A DNA stretch of 64,000 nt from an uncultured Clostridia bacterium (GTDB lineage Bacteria > Bacillota > Clostridia > Oscillospirales > CAG-272). Made by a program: the position numbers and the translations under genes. A model generated the notes under the pieces. That model searched no databases, was not told the DNA's origin, and saw only the letters and a list, made by a program, of their open reading frames with translations. This document shows positions 13,567-64,000 of this stretch, piece by piece. Position 1 is the first letter of the stretch; each line of letters opens with the position of its first letter. The stretch is taken from NCBI GenBank assembly GCA_944393415.1, contig CALYAD010000055.1, positions 3,278-67,277 on the forward strand, read 5' to 3'.

Positions 13567-13744
13567 TAATAAATAACCTCCAATGCCGCTTTCTGCGGCC
13601 AAAATTTACTTTTGGTGACTCAAAATCCACATTTAGTGGTTTAACCGTTTTTTATGGTTTTGATATAGACATGGAAACGTGAAAGCGCTGTTTTACCGAT
13701 TTAAGCGCCGAATAAATCACGATGTAAACACATGCCATTAAATT
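13567..13744 (-). promoter_or_regulatory. Type-2 leader module with an embedded diverged REP-like element
   Basis: RNA sense reads ...UUACAUCGUG...UUUCACGUUUCCAUGUCUAUAUC...AAAAAACGGUUAAACC...GCCGC-AGAAA-GCGGC-AUUGGAGGUUAUUUAUUA-AUG. It shares blocks with 60169-60288 and 63748-63863. Confidence 0.6.
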
Positions 13745-16247: not shown

Positions 16248-16404
16248 ATCTTCGTAAATTATGCGGTAATCCTTTTATCGCGTAAGCAAAAGAATAAATT
16301 TTTAAAGCTGCCTTTTGTGACTTATGCGTCGAAAATTCGGTGCGGATATGACACAGGCAAAAAACAAAACGCATATAAAGCGTAAGAAAGGAATGGCCAT
16401 AACT
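16248..16404 (+). promoter_or_regulatory. Full-length type-1 leader module (copy F)
   Basis: Blocks: AUCGCGUAAGC, then GUGACUUAUGCGUCGAAAAUUCGGUGCGG, then AAAACGCAUAUAAAGCGUAAGAAAGGAAUGGCCAUAACUAUG. These align block by block with 34839-34967 and 63346-63470. Confidence 0.65.
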
Positions 16405-34838: not shown

Positions 34839-34967
34839 TTTTATGACCATTCCTTTCTTACGCTAAATCAGCGTTTTGTGCGGTCATCCCTTGGCAAATC
34901 GACACCGTTCTTTTGGTGCCGATGAAGTCACGCTTTGACGCCGCAGACTTACGCGATTAAATAACCA
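34839..34967 (-). promoter_or_regulatory. Full-length type-1 leader module (copy A), filling the whole GH116-GNAT spacer
   Basis: RNA sense reads AAUCGCGUAAGUCUGCGGCGUCAAAGCGUGACUUCAUCGGCACCAAAAGAACGGUGUCGAUUUGCCAAGGGAUGACCGCACAAAACGCUGAUUUAGCGUAAGAAAGGAAUGGUCAUAAAAAUG. Confidence 0.65.
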
Positions 34968-58564: not shown

Positions 58565-59964
58565 CTAAATTAAATTAAAGAAATATATAGAGCCCTGTAT
58601 AAATTGCACCGAAAAGATAATAAACGTCAAAACTTCGGGTATTCCGATATTTTTTATGGAAAATTTCTTTGAAAATACGTTTGAAAGCAGCTCGGAGGTG
58701 ACGAATACATACATAATTGAAAGTGAAGTACAATATCCCCAGCTGAAATTACCGTAATATTTTCTGTATCCTGTTTCCATAATGAATCCGAATTCGAGAA
58801 TCCCGACCAGCCAGCACAGTAAAATGATACCTATATCAAGCTTGTGACTTATGTGAATGTTTTTTAGGATGATATAAAGCAGACAAAAGCCTGCCGCCAA
58901 CATTATCGATACAGGTATAAACGGAGAGTGGGCGCTCCAAACCTCAAAAAATCCAAAGGCTATACCGCCGCTGTCTTCGGATGCCGGAAGAAAGAACTCA
59001 CCAAGCATAACTCTGACCATATTGAGCAGCGACGGAAGAAATACGACTACAAGCTTTAAACAAAAGCTGAAATCCTTAAATTTATAACGTATAAGACGCA
59101 CCAAGAGGAAAATGAATATAGCGGGAATAAAAACCTGCAGAAAAGCAGGCTTTGCCATTGTGCTGAGAAACGAAAACAGCGAAAGCCTCAGGAAGTCTTT
59201 GAGCAGCTTTGGATTCTTCGAATAAAGCTGCTTTTTCAGTATCCGCAGAAACAAAAATGTACAAATAAGGGCGAAAGGCTGCACCGCAAGGTTAGTCGGG
59301 TTATGCAGCATAAACGGAGAGCCCTGACCGATTATATGTTGTGGATTGAACTGCTTAATATACAGCGGTTGCATAAACATCAGCAGAGCGGCGGTTATAT
59401 CGCATACGAAGTCATATTTCGGCTCATCTACGTAATGCATCAGAATTTTTCTGGTAAAACAGAAGGTAAGCGAACAGAAAAAAGCGGTCGATAACGCGCA
59501 CGCGCAGTTTGGCGGAAGATAGAAAACCTTTACAAACAGATTTGTGACTATATGCCATAGGGGATGCGAAAGCTTATGAAGACTTTTTCCAAGCTCTGAC
59601 CAGTCAAACGCGAGCGCGAATTCCGTATGCGGCTGATAGTCGTCAACAGGACCGTCGTATGCCAAAAAGAAGTACAAAACGGTAACCGTGGCGCCAAGTA
59701 TAAGCGCAATCAGGTCAATCCTGCCGTTTTTTTAAATATATTGAAAAAGTCGATAATTTTTTTCCCGAGAGATGTAAATATAAGAAAGGCGGATAGGGTG
59801 ACGGATAGTGCTGTAAGAATGGAGAATATAATATAAAAATCCGGCGGTCTTGACGCGAAGCTGAAATAAACCACCGTGTTGGTTGATAAAAGCGAAGCAA
59901 ATATATAAGAGAAGATAAAGGAAAATGGAAGCAGCAGCGCTCCGCCGAGTATCTTTTTTTTCAT
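58565..59964 (-). pseudogene. Polytopic membrane protein (GT-C-like or polymerase-like) split by a frameshift at a T7/A7 run
   Basis: ORFs 59710-59973 and 58565-59677 overlap in different frames across 59710-59731. Adding one A to the A7 run (plus-strand T7 at 59727-59733) gives ...FFNIFKKNGRIDLIALILGATVTVLYFFLAYDGPVDDYQPH..., a single protein of about 465 aa and more than 10 TM segments. Confidence 0.6.
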
Positions 59965-60157
59965 AATAATCACCCATACTGCCTTCAGGCAGCTAAACCG
60001 TTTTTATCGGTCCTAAACACGAAAATTTTTATATCTATTAAAAACCGATTAAAGCGTTTTTTAGCCGCCAAAAGCGTTAAGAAAAGTTTTTGGGAAGCTT
60101 CAGAAACACTTTTTTCAAAAAGGGTTTCTGATTAATTATTATAGCCGCCATTGGCGG

Positions 60158-60288
60158 AATGGAGATTAGCGTGAAAATATATTACATCGCATCAGAATGC
60201 GGCTGGTTTCACGCATAAATTTTCTAAAAAGCCGGACGCTTTTTGTTTTGCTTTGCAAAACAAGAAAATTTTTCATGTCTATTAAAAA
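60158..60288 (+). repeat. REP-like palindromic element, copy X
   Basis: AATGGAGATTAGCGTGAAA...ATCGCATCAGAATGCGG...GTTTCACGCATAAATTTTCT...GAAAATTTTTCATGTCTATTAAAAA aligns with 63736-63828. The outer palindrome is GCGTGAAA/TTTCACGC (60169-60214). Confidence 0.7.
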
Positions 60289-60291
60289 TTT

Positions 60292-61473
60292 TTATTCCAT
60301 CTCTACCAAAATATCATGGTTAAAATCCGCGGCCGCACGGTTCATTTCCTCAAGACTGCCGTACTCATAGAAAATGTAAGCGATGCGCTGACTGAGATAA
60401 TTGGTTATTTCATGTCCGGGAGGGCAGGTCTCCACTTTCTTGTAAATATGCCCGGAAATACTCTCGGGAATATAATAACTTTTAACCACGCCGTTTCTCG
60501 GCGCCATAATACCATGATGACCGCAGAAATTTCTTTTTTTGGGTATTCTCTTAAGCGTACCGCAATCAAGACCAAGCTGCGCCATAAGCTGAGCTTTGTG
60601 CCAAGGGAAGTCGGTGTTATCCTCGACAAGCTGAAGAAACTGATTACCGAACGGTCTGCGCATCATTTCTATGATATTGAAGCTTTTGCCGTTTCTGATA
60701 AGCTGAAAAGCAAATATGCCGTCACTGAGATCAAGCTGTGAAGCCATTTTCTCGATTATACCGCAAAGCTCACCGCTTATCTCCTCAATATTTTCGGCGG
60801 GAAGCGTCTCTGTCTGAATGAGGTAAGGATTGATGGGTGAGTAAGAGTTGCAGCTCGTGAAAGAGGCTATCTTCTTTTTTATCAGAAAAGCGACGAAGGT
60901 CTGCTGAACGCCTGTCAGGAATGGCTCGATAACGATATGCTTACAGCGTGAGGCTTTAAACGCGTTATCTATAGCCGCGTATGCCTGCGTTTCGTTTTCC
61001 GCTTTCATTATACCCTTGCCGCCGGTAAGATCCGTAGCTTTAACTATTATGGGATATTCAGCGGTAATAACATAACTCTTCGCCTTATTGATATCGCTGA
61101 ACGCGACGGAAACAGGGGAGGGGATATCGTTTTTGTAAAGATATTCCTTGAAAAGATCCTTTAAATGGAGCGTTTTCGCGTTTTCGTAAGTATCGTGACC
61201 TTTCCACCCCATTTTTTCCGCTACATATGCGGCGGTGAGAACCCCGAAATCGTTTGCGCAGCTTATAATATGATCTATTTTGTTATCCTTAACGAGCTTA
61301 AGAACAGCGTCTTTATCGGAATAGTCCGCGGGAATATATTCGTCCGAGTATTTATGACCGATAAGGTCCGGCATATTTCCCGTAGTTATAACGTAATATC
61401 CCATTCTTTTGGCTTCCTCGATCAGCGGTATTTCGCAGAAGCTTCCGTTTAAGATCAAAACCTTTTCTTTCAT
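60292..61473 (-). CDS. ATP-grasp domain protein
   Basis: 393 aa. It has a pre-ATP-grasp N-domain; YPIIVKATDLTGGKGIMKAENETQ and HIVIEPFLTG are ATP-grasp patterns. Its start overlaps the upstream stop by 1 nt. Confidence 0.8.
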   Translation of the reverse strand: MKEKVLILNGSFCEIPLIEEAKRMGYYVITTGNMPDLIGHKYSDEYIPADYSDKDAVLKLVKDNKIDHIISCANDFGVLTAAYVAEKMGWKGHDTYENAKTLHLKDLFKEYLYKNDIPSPVSVAFSDINKAKSYVITAEYPIIVKATDLTGGKGIMKAENETQAYAAIDNAFKASRCKHIVIEPFLTGVQQTFVAFLIKKKIASFTSCNSYSPINPYLIQTETLPAENIEEISGELCGIIEKMASQLDLSDGIFAFQLIRNGKSFNIIEMMRRPFGNQFLQLVEDNTDFPWHKAQLMAQLGLDCGTLKRIPKKRNFCGHHGIMAPRNGVVKSYYIPESISGHIYKKVETCPPGHEITNYLSQRIAYIFYEYGSLEEMNRAAADFNHDILVEME

Positions 61474-62426
61474 CAGAGCTGTTCCTCGTCCTCTTCCTCC
61501 GGTAAATTGACAGTTTCTTTTATGGCAAACTGCGGCGCGTTGTTGATACTGATATAAATACGGCCGATATATTCTCCGATCAGACCGAGAAAAAGCATGA
61601 TGATACCCGACAGTACAAGAATCGCTGTCATGATAGAGCTGTATCCGACAGGGACATTGGGATTGATAATTTTGTTAATGACGGTAATGATGCCATAAAT
61701 AAATCCCGCGGCAGAGCAGAGACAGCCGAGTAAGGAAGCAATGCGCAGAGGTTTTTCGGAAAAGGCGGTGAAGCCGTTGAGCCATAGTGAAAACAGCTTT
61801 CTGAAGCTATATCCTGAGGAGCCGTATTCACGCTGTCGATGCTCAATTTCAACGTTAGCCATATTTCTCGTTATGCGGAGGATAAGTCCGTGAACGAAGG
61901 GGTAGGCGTTTTTATATTTAACTATTTCGTCAACTATATAACGCTTGAAAACGTAATAGCTGTTGAGATCAATGTCTTTGGGTTTGCCGATCAGGTGAGT
62001 TGACATCCAGAAGCTGACCTTCGTTCCAAGCCTCCTGAGAATCGAGCGCTTTTTTTCCGTGTACTTTGCCGAAACGAGATCATATCCCTCTTCAAGTTTA
62101 TCTATAAGCTTGAACATTTCAGAGGGCGGATTCTGTCCGTCGTCGTCAAGACAGACGACGATATCTCCTTTTACATAGTTAAATCCCGCCATAAGCGCGG
62201 AATGCTGACCGAAGTTTCTCGATAAACTGATCACCTTGATACGCTTGTTTTCCTGAGCGCACCGCTTAAGCACATCAAGCGTATTGTCCGGTGAAAAGTC
62301 GTTTACGCAAATGATCTCATAGTCAAATCTGCCGTCGTCGGTTACTGTCTTAACTATCTCGCTTATGACATTCCCAACGGAGTTTTCCGAGCGATAGCAA
62401 GGAATAACGAAGGATAACTTTTTCAT
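61473..62426 (-). CDS. GT2 polyprenyl-phosphate glycosyltransferase (GtrB/ArnC-like) with 2 C-terminal TM helices
   Basis: MKKLSFVIPCYRSE, VNDFSPDNT, SRNFGQHSALMAG, CLDDDGQNPP. The start was set at ATG 62426 behind GAAAGGA. Confidence 0.85.
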   Translation of the reverse strand: MKKLSFVIPCYRSENSVGNVISEIVKTVTDDGRFDYEIICVNDFSPDNTLDVLKRCAQENKRIKVISLSRNFGQHSALMAGFNYVKGDIVVCLDDDGQNPPSEMFKLIDKLEEGYDLVSAKYTEKKRSILRRLGTKVSFWMSTHLIGKPKDIDLNSYYVFKRYIVDEIVKYKNAYPFVHGLILRITRNMANVEIEHRQREYGSSGYSFRKLFSLWLNGFTAFSEKPLRIASLLGCLCSAAGFIYGIITVINKIINPNVPVGYSSIMTAILVLSGIIMLFLGLIGEYIGRIYISINNAPQFAIKETVNLPEEEDEEQL

Positions 62427-62430
62427 TTTA

Positions 62431-63345
62431 TTAAGTCCTTTCAAGGTCGCTTTTAGAATAATAGAGCTTTAACTCAGTTATCATTTCCTCGATACCTACG
62501 GCGCTTTCATAGCCTGTATCCCTTTTGAGCTTATCGAGAGATACCTCCCAGTTGTAGTCGTCCGCGGGATCCGGCTGACCCGAATATACTATCCTTGAGG
62601 AGGAGCCGGTAAGCTCTACGCAAAGCTCCGCCAATCTTTTGTTAGATATGAGATTATGGCTTGCGAGGTTATAGACACCCTGAGCGTTAGGTGATATGAC
62701 GGCTTTATATATAGCCTGCGCAATATCGGTAACGTGAACGTAGGTCTGACGCCTTGTTCCTTTGCCCAGAAGAACGATATCTTCGCCTGCCAGAGCTTTT
62801 TGGACAAAAACGGGAAGTATGGTTTTAGGATTCATTCTTGGTCCGACTGGAGCGGTTATTCTGTAGCTGACGGTGCGTACGCCGTAAGTGTAGAACGCAT
62901 AATTTGCCAGAAGCTCCTGCATTACTTTGGTGCAATGATAAACCGTCGGAGGCTTAAGCGGATGGCTCTCCGTAATGGGAAGCTCTGACGGACTGCCTAT
63001 TACGGGAAGACTTGAAAGCTGTACGAAAACGCCTATATTTTTATCTCTGCAGAGCTCAAGCAATCTTTGAGCTCCGACGCAGTTATTTTTGATTACTTCA
63101 ATGGTATGCGGTTCTTTCCGCATATCCGCCGCAAGATGAACTATGGCGTCTAATTTGCCGACGGAGATTTTTTCAAATATATGTCCGGTGTCCTCGGTGT
63201 ACAGATCACAGAAAACATATTCGTCCGTATCCGATGTGGAATTTGCCGTTCTGTCAAGTCCGATAACAAAGCATCCCTTGTTTTTCAGCCATTTTACAAC
63301 ATGACTTCCGATAAAGCCGTTAGATCCTGTTACTAATATATTCAT
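62431..63345 (-). CDS. NAD-dependent epimerase/dehydratase (extended SDR)
   Basis: MNILVTGSNGFIGSHVV Rossmann motif and the catalytic YHCTK. Confidence 0.85.
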   Translation of the reverse strand: MNILVTGSNGFIGSHVVKWLKNKGCFVIGLDRTANSTSDTDEYVFCDLYTEDTGHIFEKISVGKLDAIVHLAADMRKEPHTIEVIKNNCVGAQRLLELCRDKNIGVFVQLSSLPVIGSPSELPITESHPLKPPTVYHCTKVMQELLANYAFYTYGVRTVSYRITAPVGPRMNPKTILPVFVQKALAGEDIVLLGKGTRRQTYVHVTDIAQAIYKAVISPNAQGVYNLASHNLISNKRLAELCVELTGSSSRIVYSGQPDPADDYNWEVSLDKLKRDTGYESAVGIEEMITELKLYYSKSDLERT

Positions 63346-63735: not shown

Positions 63736-63828
63736 AATAGGAGAATAGCGTGAAAGATCAGTCTGATCGCATCAAAATGCAGATAGTTTCACGCTCAAAT
63801 TTTCTTGCGAAAATTTTTCATGTCTATT
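63736..63828 (+). repeat. REP-like palindromic element, copy Y
   Basis: AATAGGAGAATAGCGTGAAAGATCAGTCTGATCGCATCAAAATGCAGATAGTTTCACGCTCAAATTTTCTTGCGAAAATTTTTCATGTCTATT. The outer palindrome spans 63748-63794. Confidence 0.7.
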
Positions 63829-63858
63829 TTGTGCTGCCTTGGGCAGCATGGGGGATTA

Positions 63859-64000
63859 TTATGATAAGTTGCCGTAAGCATCACAGGTTACACTGATATC
63901 AATATTATATGTTTTTAAGGTAATAAATAAAACTTTCTTTTTGAAAGTGCCTAACCCGTGAGCGACATTATTTTCAGCGTATGCGTTTCCGTCAGAAAAA
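63859..64000 (-). CDS. 3' end of an unidentified gene entering from the right edge
   Basis: An open minus-strand frame reads ...FSDGNAYAENNVAHGLGTFKKKVLFITLKTYNIDISVTCDAYGNLS then TAA (63861-63859). Only 46 codons are visible, so no family call is possible. Confidence 0.35.
   Translation of the reverse strand, partial: FSDGNAYAENNVAHGLGTFKKKVLFITLKTYNIDISVTCDAYGNLS

Follow-up and report, generated by a model that had tools for sequence, protein, structure and literature searches.

The window analyzed here, a stretch of 64,000 nucleotides from an uncultured Clostridia bacterium, contains a spacer of 318 nt between an ATP-grasp gene and a membrane gene that belong to a surface-glycan cluster. 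The spacer is filled with palindromes and direct repeats (Table 1). Every palindrome and box that a first-pass annotation had listed in it is present, none displaced by more than 1 nt, and a repeat search recovered the two boxes as a direct repeat (D1) and the palindromes as inverted repeats I2, I3, and I6. The spacer RNA folds at -95.3 kcal/mol, compared with -68.4 +/- 5 kcal/mol in shuffles (z = -5.4). This fold, together with 209 genome-wide nhmmer matches of the central repeat, places the spacer repeats far beyond chance.

Table 1. Features of the spacer and related copies elsewhere in the window (SD, Shine-Dalgarno sequence; positions are those of the window).
Feature	Position	Strand	Composition or remark
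Spacer, 318 nt	59974-60291		Between the ATP-grasp gene and the membrane gene
CTGCC-TTCA-GGCAG	59979-59992		
GAAAATTTTT box	60021-60043		
GCCGCC	60064-60069		
AGAAAC...GTTTCT	60102-60129		
CCGCC-ATT-GGCGG	60145-60157		Followed by GGAG, then GTG at 60171-60173
GCGTGAAA...TTTCACGC palindrome	60169-60214		Inner CGCAT-CAGA-ATGCG
TTGTTTTGC-TTT-GCAAAACAA hairpin	60243-60263		
Second box copy	60264-60288		
3' module of a B-type element	59965-60012	-	Operon sense; linker hairpin ACCGATAAAAACGGT, GC hairpin GCTGCC-TGAA-GGCAG, ATGGGTGATTATT with SD (GGGTGA)
5'-truncated B tail (AAACACGAAAATTTTTATATCTATT)	60015-60039	+	Opposite to operon sense; B profile positions ~95-121
Decayed 3' module of the truncated B element	60040-60076	+	AAAAACCGATTAAAGCG linker, TTTTTTAGCCGCC, broken second hairpin arm
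One family A copy	60077-60131	+	Palindromic, ~52 nt, REP/SPRITE-like
GC hairpin GCCGCC-ATT-GGCGG plus AATGGAG	60142-60164	+	3' end (hairpin and SD) of an upstream B-type element, joined to the next element
Full-length B core	60165-60288	+	Opposite to operon sense; in order, left-end hairpin GCGTGAAA...TTTCACGC with inner hairpin, AAAAAGC-CGGAC-GCTTTTT, GTTTTGC-TTT-GCAAAAC, box AAGAAAATTTTTCATGTCTATT, AAAAA
Element Y, short (85-nt) B variant with complete 3' module	63744-63860	+	GCTGCC-TTGG-GGCAGC-ATGGGGGATTATT; nhmmer match C55:67021-67105
Decayed 3' part of a B-related element	13585-13700	-	Read by eye; ends GCCGC-AGAAA-GCGGC-ATTGGAGG ahead of the ABC-exporter start (ATG 13566-13564)

A decayed gene, an outcome that the first-pass annotation had named as refuting its view, does not explain the spacer. 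No ORF of at least 60 aa lies inside it, and the sole listed ORF (57 aa; 60197-60370, plus strand) exits into the antisense of the ATP-grasp gene. A conserved small ORF beginning at the GTG at 60171 was considered and rejected, since copies of the repeat differ in length by single nucleotides and no reading frame is kept. A promoter consensus scan found one weak sigma-70-like site, no more than in shuffles. No Rfam family matched the window at the gathering score, nor the spacer locus and five relatives' loci at E <= 1. Four other metagenome contigs with the same ATP-grasp protein carry a spacer that is identical base for base over the length that each covers. Because the other assemblies of the species share the spacer and no ATP-grasp orthologue was found in 12 congeners (best identity, 27%), this locus offers no empty site for comparison.

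We consider it highly likely that the spacer is a mosaic of two small, noncoding, transposase-less repeat families, here called B and A, and that it holds no dedicated regulatory region. The other copies suggest, by analogy, ATG 59964-59962 as the most probable start of the membrane gene; this codon shares its frame with the GTG at 59973, and repeat-derived sequence would therefore extend to about 59965. The operon-sense 3' module of a B-type element lies directly upstream of this probable start. The same kind of module, GCTGCC-loop-GGCAGC-ATGGGGGATTATT-ATG, terminates dozens of B elements ahead of ORFs, and a single-sequence nhmmer search found 12 copies of 59956-59997. Facing the other way is the truncated B tail, which forms D1 with 60266-60288 and runs into a decayed module whose canonical counterpart is CTATT-AAAAACCGATTAAAACGGTTTTTTAGCCGCC-loop-GGCGGCATGGAGG; the stretch 60015-60072 has 23 nhmmer matches. 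Past the family A copy, the junction at 60142-60164, where ...GGCGGCATGGAG meets ATTAGCGTGAAA, is of the type that links units in many head-to-tail arrays.

The full-length B copy that follows this junction matches profile positions 2-121 at 112 bits (nhmmer match C55:63442-63560, window 60165-60283). It has no hairpin-plus-SD module of its own and ends 3 nt from the ATP-grasp stop (60292-60294). With copies on two other contigs (C12:2806-2934 and C61:17255-17374) it shares 96-98% identity, from which B appears to have been recently active. Reversed relative to the operon and serving no gene, this copy is atypical, and the first-pass annotation took it as typical behavior.

The genome-wide census that the annotation had proposed confirmed a repeat family, with at least 209 copies of B and about 120 of A in place of three. 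In the genome from which the window comes (G000), nhmmer matched B 161 times with a single-sequence query and 209 times with a profile, in 61 of 76 contigs; the copies amount to 19.4 kb, or 0.83% of the assembly. B copies are 85-140 nt long and have no terminal inverted repeats: the left end begins TAGCGTGAAA..., the right end closes with ...GGCGGCATGGAGGATTA, and the sequences next to the flanking TA on either side (GCGTGAAAG after the left TA, CATGGAGGAT before the right TA) are not inverted repeats of each other. The typical anatomy runs from a native SD (e.g., AAGGAG or GGAGGGG) through (N)TAGCGTGAAA... to ...GCYGCC-loop-GGCRGC, then ATGGAGG or ATGAGGTG, and then ATTA-nn-ATG. Optional internal units consist of two hairpins and 0-3 copies of AAAAACCGATnAAAACGGTT.

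Position and orientation set family B apart from what had been claimed for it. By a strict criterion, 79 of 122 evaluable clusters have an ORF of 50 aa or more that begins 5-20 nt after the B hairpin (mode, 13), and many of the clusters that fail it have imperfect hairpins in the same layout. B sits between a displaced native SD and the start codon. An element-borne SD lies some 6-8 nt ahead of the start codon, and the native SD, intact upstream of single copies, lies about 100-180 nt further up. TA precedes GCGTG in 98 of 144 B left ends, and 44 of the 144 come after the hairpin-plus-SD module of another element. Orientation had been described as free relative to transcription, which is not so for B: in co-directional gene pairs of G000, by crude longest-ORF gene calls, 86 clusters are co-oriented with the flanking genes and 13 are opposite (87%). 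Arrays run head-to-tail with up to four units, and orientation is mixed in 1 of the 46 multi-copy clusters.

The genes behind B are unrelated to one another, encoding ProRS (Pfam) and, as judged by eye, an esterase, an oxidoreductase, an AraC regulator, and an LRR surface protein. Other copies are 5'- or 3'-truncated, opposite in sense, or without a gene behind them, among them those of the spacer and element Y. Some arrays are joined by a 19-nt linker, CTGAACGTTATATGCAAGAC, that has neither hairpin nor SD; repeated insertion behind a restored SD does not account for these arrays.

Base pairing in B was counted on a stated structure, since RNAalifold gave no structure for 158 B copies. The 3' hairpin covaries and occurs as three perfectly paired alleles, GCCGCC/GGCGGC (34 copies), GCTGCC/GGCAGC (26), and GTCGCC/GGCGAC (21). 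The inner left-end stem shows swaps of C-G to T-A and A-T, and G-T pairs, seen in 58 copies at one position and in 20 at another, are confined to the sense strand.

Family A is palindromic and about 52 nt long, with the consensus AAGAAAAGTTTTTGGGAAGTTTCAGAAACCCTTTTTTCAAAAAGGGTTTCTG and some 120 non-overlapping copies in G000. Its stem variants are compensatory (CAGAAACCC/GGGTTTCTG, CAGGAACCC/GGGTTCCTG, and CAGGGAAC/GTTCCCTG). Copies occur in both orientations downstream of genes: 53 lie in tandem and 34 in convergent intervals, but divergent intervals contain only about 2. Target duplication is not systematic, and flanking direct repeats are not above control level. A target duplication around the spacer's own copy was considered and rejected: the flanking TAGCCGCCA repeat is unique to that copy and reflects two neighboring B 3' modules. 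Family A is a REP-like hairpin sited after genes, a location that it shares with SPRITE as well as REP. The 3' positions first proposed for these elements hold for A and not for B, which lies between SD and start codon.

Two further copies in the window had been aligned with the spacer. The alignment to element Y is real, and Y is a short variant of the same repeat that lacks the two-hairpin middle (~36 nt) of the spacer B copy. A native SD (AATAGGAG) lies upstream of Y and only an 11-codon ORF downstream, so that Y serves no gene. The copy at 13.6 kb reads by eye as the decayed 3' part of such an element, but it does not reach the nhmmer threshold for B, and the profile search lists only two copies on C55, the contig of the window; its membership in the family is therefore weak.

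Comparison of congeners at the start of proS bears on how B arrives. In G004 and G012 the empty start reads aaaaggaacggttt-TA-aaaaATG, and in G000 the filled start reads aaaaggcgtggtttt-TA-GCGTGAAA...(139 nt)...GGTGAT-TA-aaATG, with TA on both sides of B. A diverged element sits independently at proS in G006, and the remaining congeners are empty. Filled and empty proS sites show insertion of B at a TA, without inverted ends. Strain-level presence/absence polymorphism was not found, the single other proS contig recovered being also filled and the spacer being identical in the other assemblies recovered. A radical-SAM gene chosen as a second empty-site test is absent from the congeners. A T-box upstream of proS, suspected by eye, had no Rfam support. 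A MITE (IS630/Tc1-type or other) was also rejected: although the TA on either side could be a TA duplication, the B ends are not inverted repeats.

We propose, with good confidence, that B is an element of the gap between SD and start codon that brings a replacement SD with it, and that the spacer accumulated between two genes of the surface-glycan cluster. Normally B occupies, in a single orientation, a TA that lies between SD and start codon. The native SD is thereby shifted about 100-180 nt upstream, and the GC hairpin and new SD at the B 3' end would take over, so that the gene would stay translatable. The replacement SD is presumably the one in use. The restored SD-TA-ATG site would be open to renewed insertion, which would explain the head-to-tail arrays, and arrays probably grew in this manner. 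Within the spacer, the sole module in a working position would be the 3' module beside the membrane gene, supplying a hairpin and a predicted SD. The full opposite-sense B copy and the B tail most likely remain from a rearrangement, or from replacement of a cassette, whose breakpoint lies just past the ATP-grasp stop.

Relatives of B extend well beyond this genome. BLAST found B in 5 of 12 congeners, and the signature AGCGTGAAA-N26-42-TTTCACGC was found in 58 of the 401 genomes sampled from the bacterial family, representing 30 of 97 genera, against 1 control match. In about 8 of 12 inspected copies from other genera, the layout is again SD, element, and GC hairpin with GGAATGGAGAT and ATG. 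Exact 20-mers returned chance matches only in 185,579 species genomes (the genome's own records left out), and plasmid and phage collections held no match to the repeat. In viral contigs, 41 signature matches were at chance level, and none had the element layout. None of the literature searched describes elements of this type from such an organism, in line with the first-pass annotation.

Our best guess at the mover of B, drawn from its behavior, is an IS110-type, bridge-RNA-guided recombinase acting in trans, a tentative attribution to which we give somewhat less than an even chance. IS110 members have neither inverted repeats nor target duplications (PMC8141618); their targets are chosen via a noncoding RNA, and mini-elements are mobile with transposase and RNA supplied in trans (PMC11187229, PMC11208160). 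B behaves in a comparable way: its ends are not inverted repeats, nothing longer than the TA on both sides is duplicated, and it occupies a sequence-specific target in a single orientation. It would then be a miniature, transposase-less IS110 derivative, moved by a DEDD recombinase that a bridge or seek RNA guides to the gap between SD and start codon, as for the IS900 group. IS900 itself inserts between RBS and start codon. The one IS110-family fragment in G000 (Transposase_20, 85 bits) has a right end that adjoins CTCCTTCC, the reverse complement of an SD, and so looks like an IS900-style insertion. However, this fragment is C-terminal, lies at a contig end, and has ends unlike those of B.

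Searches for a partner enzyme also weigh against an IS110 origin, which we rate as possible and not as probable. No DEDD_Tnp_IS110 domain was found in G000, in the five repeat-bearing congeners, or in the five signature-richest genomes of the family (96-98% complete, 30-70 contigs). All genomes searched for a partner are draft MAGs, from whose assemblies insertion sequences are often missing. Among 151 family genomes scanned for both, IS110 was no commoner with the signature (4 of 23 signature-bearing genomes versus 22 of 151 overall), and the thirty IS110-candidate loci from these genomes (22 above the Pfam cutoff) showed no B-like end and no hairpin plus SD. The B consensus contains no CTCC or GGAG stretch as a possible SD guide; B relatives in other genera have a AAATTCTCC stretch that could pair with the element's own GGAGAT. 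Neither RVT_1 nor a TnpB domain was found in G000 and four of the five signature-richest genomes, and G000 has no transposase-like multi-copy ORF. Nor does G000 hold a B copy with an ORF between left and right ends; two candidates enclose a Rnf-like membrane protein and a glutamate kinase.

Set beside the IS900/IS901/IS902 group and the mini-elements of seekRNA/bridge-RNA recombinases, B is alike in lacking both inverted ends and a long target duplication (PMC11187229, PMC11208160, PMC8141618). Unlike that group, B has no transposase gene inside it, no cognate IS110 with matching ends in the genomes examined, and no co-occurrence with DEDD transposases. It reaches hundreds of copies as against tens for known IS900-group elements. 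Single orientation and the gap between RBS and start codon as a target are common to both, yet B runs in the direction of its target gene and brings a replacement SD.

A bolder proposal, which we think rather unlikely, is that B constitutes, together with relatives from 30 or more genera, a distinct mobile class that targets gene starts, recognizes the SD/TA/ATG context, is moved by none of the usual enzymes, and has possibly also been co-opted as a genome-wide layer of translational control. The left-end hairpin, whose stem is conserved across genera around a variable interior of ~30 nt, could be a recognition or guide module. Co-option may be considered because about 100 genes (~5% of the genome) lie behind a common structured leader with an element-borne RBS. 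A mobile origin and a co-opted function are compatible with each other.

It is improbable, in our estimation, that B is instead a functional RNA reused at many genes, whether as a cis-regulatory leader (for example, a riboswitch or a protein-binding translational operator) or as an sRNA gene. Its location in 5' UTRs directly ahead of start codons and the conservation of the left-end stem across 30 genera would suit such a role. The sense-strand G-T pairs would fit RNA or a single-stranded top strand, and the potential pairing of AAATTCTCC with GGAGAT points the same way. However, a leader of this kind is at odds with arrays of up to four units; with truncated, gene-less, and opposite-sense copies; and with the displaced but intact native SD above single copies. 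Presence or absence at proS varies among congeners, the downstream genes are unrelated, and there is no match to an Rfam family.

The REP/BIME reading favored by the first-pass annotation, in which RAYT-spread extragenic palindromes occupy operon junctions and 3' ends irrespective of orientation and affect mRNA stability or termination, survives in part. The spacer is indeed a BIME-like mosaic of palindromic modules with a highly structured RNA (z = -5.4), comparable to the palindrome clusters in intergenic DNA of Enterobacteria and Pseudomonas, and family A, with its compensatory stems in both orientations after genes, is REP-like. For B, orientation, position, and arrays argue against it. 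The copies are 87% co-oriented and lie at start codons, on the 5' side of genes and not at 3' ends. Their arrays are head-to-tail, whereas BIMEs alternate in orientation. B spans 85-140 nt with several different hairpins, compared with a palindrome of 20-40 nt. The search for a RAYT gene, suggested at the outset, found no Y1_Tnp (PF01797) in G000, which is 96.7% complete, against a control of 6 of 14 reference genomes. As an account of B, REP/BIME is thus very unlikely. Finally, a local duplication confined to the three copies first noticed (those of the spacer, Y, and 13.6 kb), or a pseudogene remnant, has next to no chance of being right, since the census found B and A copies over most contigs, repeat lengths differ by single nucleotides without a frame, and the spacer lacks an ORF of at least 60 aa.

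Returning to B as an element that carries its own SD, two known systems offer parallels. First, Neisseria REP2 (and the Borrelia IR sequences) resemble B in having no inverted ends, at least two internal stem-loops, and a place immediately upstream of ORFs (PMC3184786). Both REP2 and B carry an RBS for the downstream gene (PMC3184786), its use being predicted for B, and the layout of 79 of 122 clusters would place B in a REP2-like class of RBS-carrying upstream repeats. REP2 also carries a promoter and an ATG (PMC3184786); no promoter is evident in B by the spacer scan. REP2 has about 26 copies (PMC3184786) versus more than 200 for B, the sequences are unrelated, and the displaced native SD and tandem arrays are features of B alone. 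Second, BOX of Streptococcus pneumoniae, with RUP and SPRITE, is like B a Firmicute intergenic repeat with ~100-200 copies in a genome of ~2 Mb (PMC3049150, PMC3184786). BOX and B are both modular with variable internal units, and neither has a transposase of its own. In contrast to B, BOX has no fixed position relative to SD and start codon, no strict orientation rule, and no supplied SD, and there is no sequence similarity between them.

Recognizing these repeats has practical consequences. The elements can be mistaken for riboswitch-like leaders, for terminators, or, through the SD and GTG at the left end, for small ORFs, and their recognition prevents false calls of RNAs and small proteins in gut Clostridia MAGs. 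Both families also disrupt assemblies, with a B copy within 300 nt of 13 contig ends and an A copy within 300 nt of 17. The repeats flank and interrupt the surface-glycan gene block and may have been portable homology for cassette exchange. Widespread as B is (58 of 401 genomes), apparently recently active, and with no transposase found, it offers either a large and still untapped collection of donor/target pairs of the IS110 type or a clue to some other site-specific mechanism. For the host, a mobile element that replaces the RBS of about 100 genes in a 2.3-Mb genome would be an unusual route to tolerance of a parasite, one in which initiation by the host would depend on parasite sequence.

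When the spacer (59974-60291) was compared by BLAST with the whole genome, it returned hundreds of matches, which fall into separable modules. These include modules of two dispersed repeats: family B, of 85-140 nt, which lies at gene starts, and family A, a palindrome of about 52 nt that follows genes. As a single sequence, the central module (60158-60291) gave 161 nhmmer matches, rising to 209 after two profile rounds; these occupy 61 of the 76 contigs (110 on one strand, 99 on the other) and include 145 of nearly full length, and their lengths cluster at about 84, 95, 119-120, and 139 nt. Copies truncated at the 5' or the 3' side are common. The B core amounts to 19.4 kb, or 0.83% of the assembly (2.33 Mb, 46% G+C, 76 contigs, a 96.7% complete draft; every genome used here is a draft MAG). 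The copy counts are lower bounds, since B copies are found no more than 300 nt from 13 of the contig ends. The first-pass annotation had proposed a genome-wide family, and this holds; the outcomes that it set against such a family, a total of just three copies or an origin as a decayed gene, were both checked, and neither was found.

Family B has one recurring layout, as seen in copies printed with their flanks. A native Shine-Dalgarno sequence (SD; AAGGAG, GGAGGGG, AAGGAA, etc.) is followed after 0-6 nt by TA and then by a left-end hairpin, GCGTGAAA-(about 30 nt, including an inner hairpin)-TTTCACGC, and TAAATTTTCT. The middle consists of two optional hairpins, AAAAAGC-N5-GCTTTTT and GTTTTGC-N3-GCAAAAC, after which come ACGAAAATTTTTCATGTCTATT and zero to three copies of AAAAACCGATnAAAACGGTT. 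A 3' module, made of the GC hairpin GCYGCC-N3-4-GGCRGC and either ATGGAGG or ATGAGGTG, leads through ATTA and a further 2-3 nt to the ATG of a genuine open reading frame (ORF). The SD in this module would replace the native one, which B displaces. A strict test asked for the hairpin, an SD, and, 5-20 nt past the hairpin (mode 13), the start of an ORF of at least 50 aa; 79 of 122 evaluable clusters qualified. Most of the listed failures keep this layout, with imperfections in the hairpin. In a minority of clusters, including those in the spacer and at element Y (a short B copy at 63744-63828), no gene follows.

Paired alleles and compensatory swaps show that both hairpins are maintained, either in RNA or in the top strand of the DNA. 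The outer left-end stem, GCGTGAAA/TTTCACGC, is almost invariant, while the inner stem changes from C-G to T-A in 18 copies and to A-T in 17. The inner stem also contains many G-T pairs, which are C-A mismatches on the opposite strand. The 3' GC hairpin occurs as three perfectly paired alleles: GCCGCC/GGCGGC (34 copies), GCTGCC/GGCAGC (26), and GTCGCC/GGCGAC (21).

That B is inserted DNA is evidenced by the Pfam-identified prolyl-tRNA synthetase gene, which has a B copy at its start in the source genome. Its orthologues in 12 congeners, whose starts were located with the N-terminal 75 residues, are 80-92% identical over those residues and 81-86% over the whole protein. Two congeners (G004 and G012) have an empty start, aaaaggaacggttt-TA-aaaa(a)ATG, and the source genome has a filled one, aaaaggcgtggtttt-TA-GCGTGAAA...139 nt...GGTGAT-TA-aaATG; B is thus bounded by TA on both sides. 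In a third congener (G006), a diverged element sits independently at this gene and reads cagagga-TA-GCGTGAAAG...GGAGAT-TA-aaATG; the nearest relatives of G006 read cagaggaaatttagaATG and tagaggataacttaaaATG. Across 144 left ends, the dinucleotide before GCGTG is TA in 98 and CA in 27. The two ends of B are not inverted repeats. B has also been inserted right behind the SD of a second repeat family at two loci, indicating that several families share the same target. This second family, unrelated in sequence, likewise ends in an SD (…GCGTAAGAAAGGAATGGYCA) ahead of start codons.

The comparison with REP/BIME elements made in the first-pass annotation captured a genuine dispersed family with mosaic structure, but the rules of behavior were wrong for B, which sits at gene starts. 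When genes were called crudely as longest ORFs (1958 in all, 86% coding), B clusters in codirectional gene pairs were co-oriented in 86 cases and opposite in 13. No RAYT-like gene (Y1_Tnp) was found in the source genome. Placement in intergenic or 3' positions in either orientation, claimed for the spacer repeats generally, is true of family A but not of B.

The 55-nt palindrome at 60077-60131 represents family A, of which the genome has about 120 nonoverlapping copies, with the consensus AAGAAAAGTTTTTGGGAAGTTTCAGAAACCCTTTTTTCAAAAAGGGTTTCTG and compensatory stem variants. Its copies lie in tandem (53), convergent (34), and divergent (about 2) intervals, in both orientations, and no systematic duplication flanks them; this is the component of the spacer that truly behaves like a REP or SPRITE element. 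Since no U-tract follows the stem in either sense, family A is not a canonical intrinsic terminator, and a terminator scan made no call there. One subfamily shares the left-end hairpin of B (ATAGCGTGAAAGTTAAGTCAGATCAAATCAGCGTTCAG…), has a conserved …TGAAATCAGACATACACCTTT…GGCGGG flank upstream, and often lies beside family A copies, which suggests a larger composite element joining A-like and B-like modules.

Features of the spacer, the neighboring surface-glycan cluster, and related repeats (window coordinates unless a contig of the source genome is named)
Feature	Position	Remark
B 3' module, reverse complement	59965-60012 (plus coordinates)	linker hairpin + GCTGCC-TGAA-GGCAG + ATGGGTGATTATT
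B tail, plus sense	60015-60039	
Decayed 3' module	60040-60076	belongs to the B tail at 60015-60039
Family A copy	60077-60131	one copy
GC hairpin + AATGGAG, plus sense	60142-60164	
Complete B core, plus sense	60165-60288	
ATP-grasp enzyme	60292-61473	surface-glycan cluster
GT2 glycosyltransferase	61473-62444	surface-glycan cluster
SDR epimerase	62431-63345	surface-glycan cluster (the spacer lies on the minus-strand side of the cluster)
Small membrane ORF, 370-aa ORF, and GDP-mannose-dehydratase-like gene		surface-glycan cluster
Second SD-ending repeat family	16248-16404; 34839-34967; C38:7053-7075; C11:15859-15880	
ATAGCGTGAAAGTTAAGTCAGATCAAATCAGCGTTCAG subfamily	C1:13897-13955; C5:12583-12637; C51:186-233; C41:22263-22313	examples

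The spacer itself is an ordinary outcome of this unusual repeat family. All of the palindromes and boxes previously listed in it were found, each placed to within 1 nt, and its RNA in operon sense has a folding energy of -95.3 kcal/mol, compared with -68.4 +/- 5 for shuffled sequences (z = -5.4). The reverse-complement 3' module lies directly before the ATG at 59964-59962, with a GTG at 59973 in frame; by analogy with all other copies, this ATG is probably the start of the membrane gene. This module would do the usual job of B for the membrane gene, and the remainder is a plus-sense array that serves nothing. Behind the spacer, the membrane gene is in two pieces, ORFs of about 84 and 370 codons (59710-59736). 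The complete B core lacks its own 3' module and ends 3 nt short of the ATP-grasp stop codon; it belongs to one of the 13 oppositely oriented clusters. The 96-98% identity of this core to canonical copies elsewhere shows that it is no ancient remnant.

Element Y, which had been aligned with the spacer, is indeed the same repeat without the roughly 36-nt two-hairpin middle, whereas the other proposed copy, before the ABC-exporter gene near 13.6 kb, is just a decayed 3' part. Y, likewise in plus sense, sits across the three-gene block from the spacer, with an 11-codon stub behind it; the gene that Y once served has apparently been lost. The stub (ATGATAAGTTGCCGTAAGCATCACAGGTTACACTGA, 63861-63896) is the only ORF behind Y's replacement SD, and the next ORF is on the opposite strand. 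We infer that the three-gene block may have been placed or replaced via recombination at B-type repeats. No orthologous locus for the spacer was found in the congeners, and four other assemblies of the same species carry an identical spacer.

BLAST matches to B, at about 75% identity, came from 5 of the 12 congeners and from virtually no other genome. Its left-end signature, AGCGTGAAA-N26-42-TTTCACGC, is broader: it was seen in 58 of the 401 genomes sampled from the bacterial family, in 30 of 97 genera and at up to about 20 per genome (the reversed pattern gave 1 match, and about 2 are expected by chance). Copies from other genera differ in their interior and keep the architecture: native SD, left-end hairpin, TAAATTCTCC with two hairpins, GTCGAATTTCAT, GC hairpin, GGAATGGAGAT, 3 nt, and ATG. 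Searches for matches in Rfam and among plasmids and phages returned none, and viral contigs have the signature at chance level only. In function, the nearest published counterparts are the Neisseria REP2 and Borrelia IR repeats, both of which contain a ribosome-binding site ahead of ORFs (PMC3184786); in genomic style, they are the pneumococcal BOX, RUP, and SPRITE elements (PMC3049150). Our literature searches turned up no account of such elements in gut Clostridia. Family B is a novel variant of the known kinds of non-autonomous bacterial repeats.

IS900 prefers to insert into the gap between SD and start codon. B resembles the IS110 family, the IS900 group in particular, in its lack of inverted repeats, shared core dinucleotide, single orientation, and SD-gap target. 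The traits general to the IS110 family are documented (PMC8141618, PMC11187229, PMC11208160). Nevertheless, the one test run of membership, a search for a partner with B-like ends, went against it: such ends are absent from 30 IS110-candidate loci in a scan of 151 genomes of the bacterial family. IS110 exceeds the Pfam cutoff in 22 of those 151 genomes and in 4 of the 23 that also have the left-end signature, which is no enrichment. The IS110 DEDD domain was not found in the source genome, in five repeat-bearing congeners, or in the five signature-richest genomes (96-98% complete, 30-70 contigs); neither reverse transcriptase nor TnpB was found in the source genome or in four of those five. 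The source genome also yielded no multicopy transposase-like ORF and no copy with an ORF between left and right ends. IS110-type mobilization is therefore the leading guess and not a finding, and we hold it to be somewhat doubtful. 

Outside the window, the source genome has a C-terminal Transposase_20 fragment of the IS110 family (85 bits; C15:49700-50561, locus L011), which the contig end truncates. At its right end (…CCTATTGACTTTTTGATAGTTGG), the fragment has the TTGACTTTT motif that other IS110 copies in the bacterial family share, and CTCCTTCC, a reverse-complement SD, follows directly; the fragment looks like an IS900-style insertion into the gap between SD and start codon, running antisense to the targeted gene. 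It does not resemble B and was rejected as its partner.

Sorted along contigs, the B copies form 148 clusters, 46 of which have 2-4 units, head to tail with one exception. In 44 of 144 left ends, the unit directly follows the SD of the previous one (...CATGGAGG|ATTAGCGTG...), and another 15 come after a 19-nt linker, CTGAACGTTATATGCAAGAC, without an SD. The linker arrays are left unexplained by a simple reinsertion model; the B dimer may itself move as a unit, or some other mechanism may drive array growth. The linker, which contains neither hairpin nor SD, recurs at at least nine loci and joins arrays of two or three units (e.g., C13:21671-22018, C6:24167-24534, and C27:10271-10581).

Finally, each B copy offers an upstream ORF of 15-21 codons in an unconserved frame, as seen at 60171-60218 and at all left ends. 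The GTG within AGCGTGAAA lies 6-8 nt past the displaced native SD or the SD of the previous unit. The short ORF may act as a ribosome trap or be a source of spurious small-protein calls. At one locus in another genus (L084, G099:C13, about 1500-1690), the left-end GTG frame, read by eye, appears to continue across the entire element and to match the frame of the downstream ATG; if this frame is real, the displaced native SD could yield an N-terminally extended protein.
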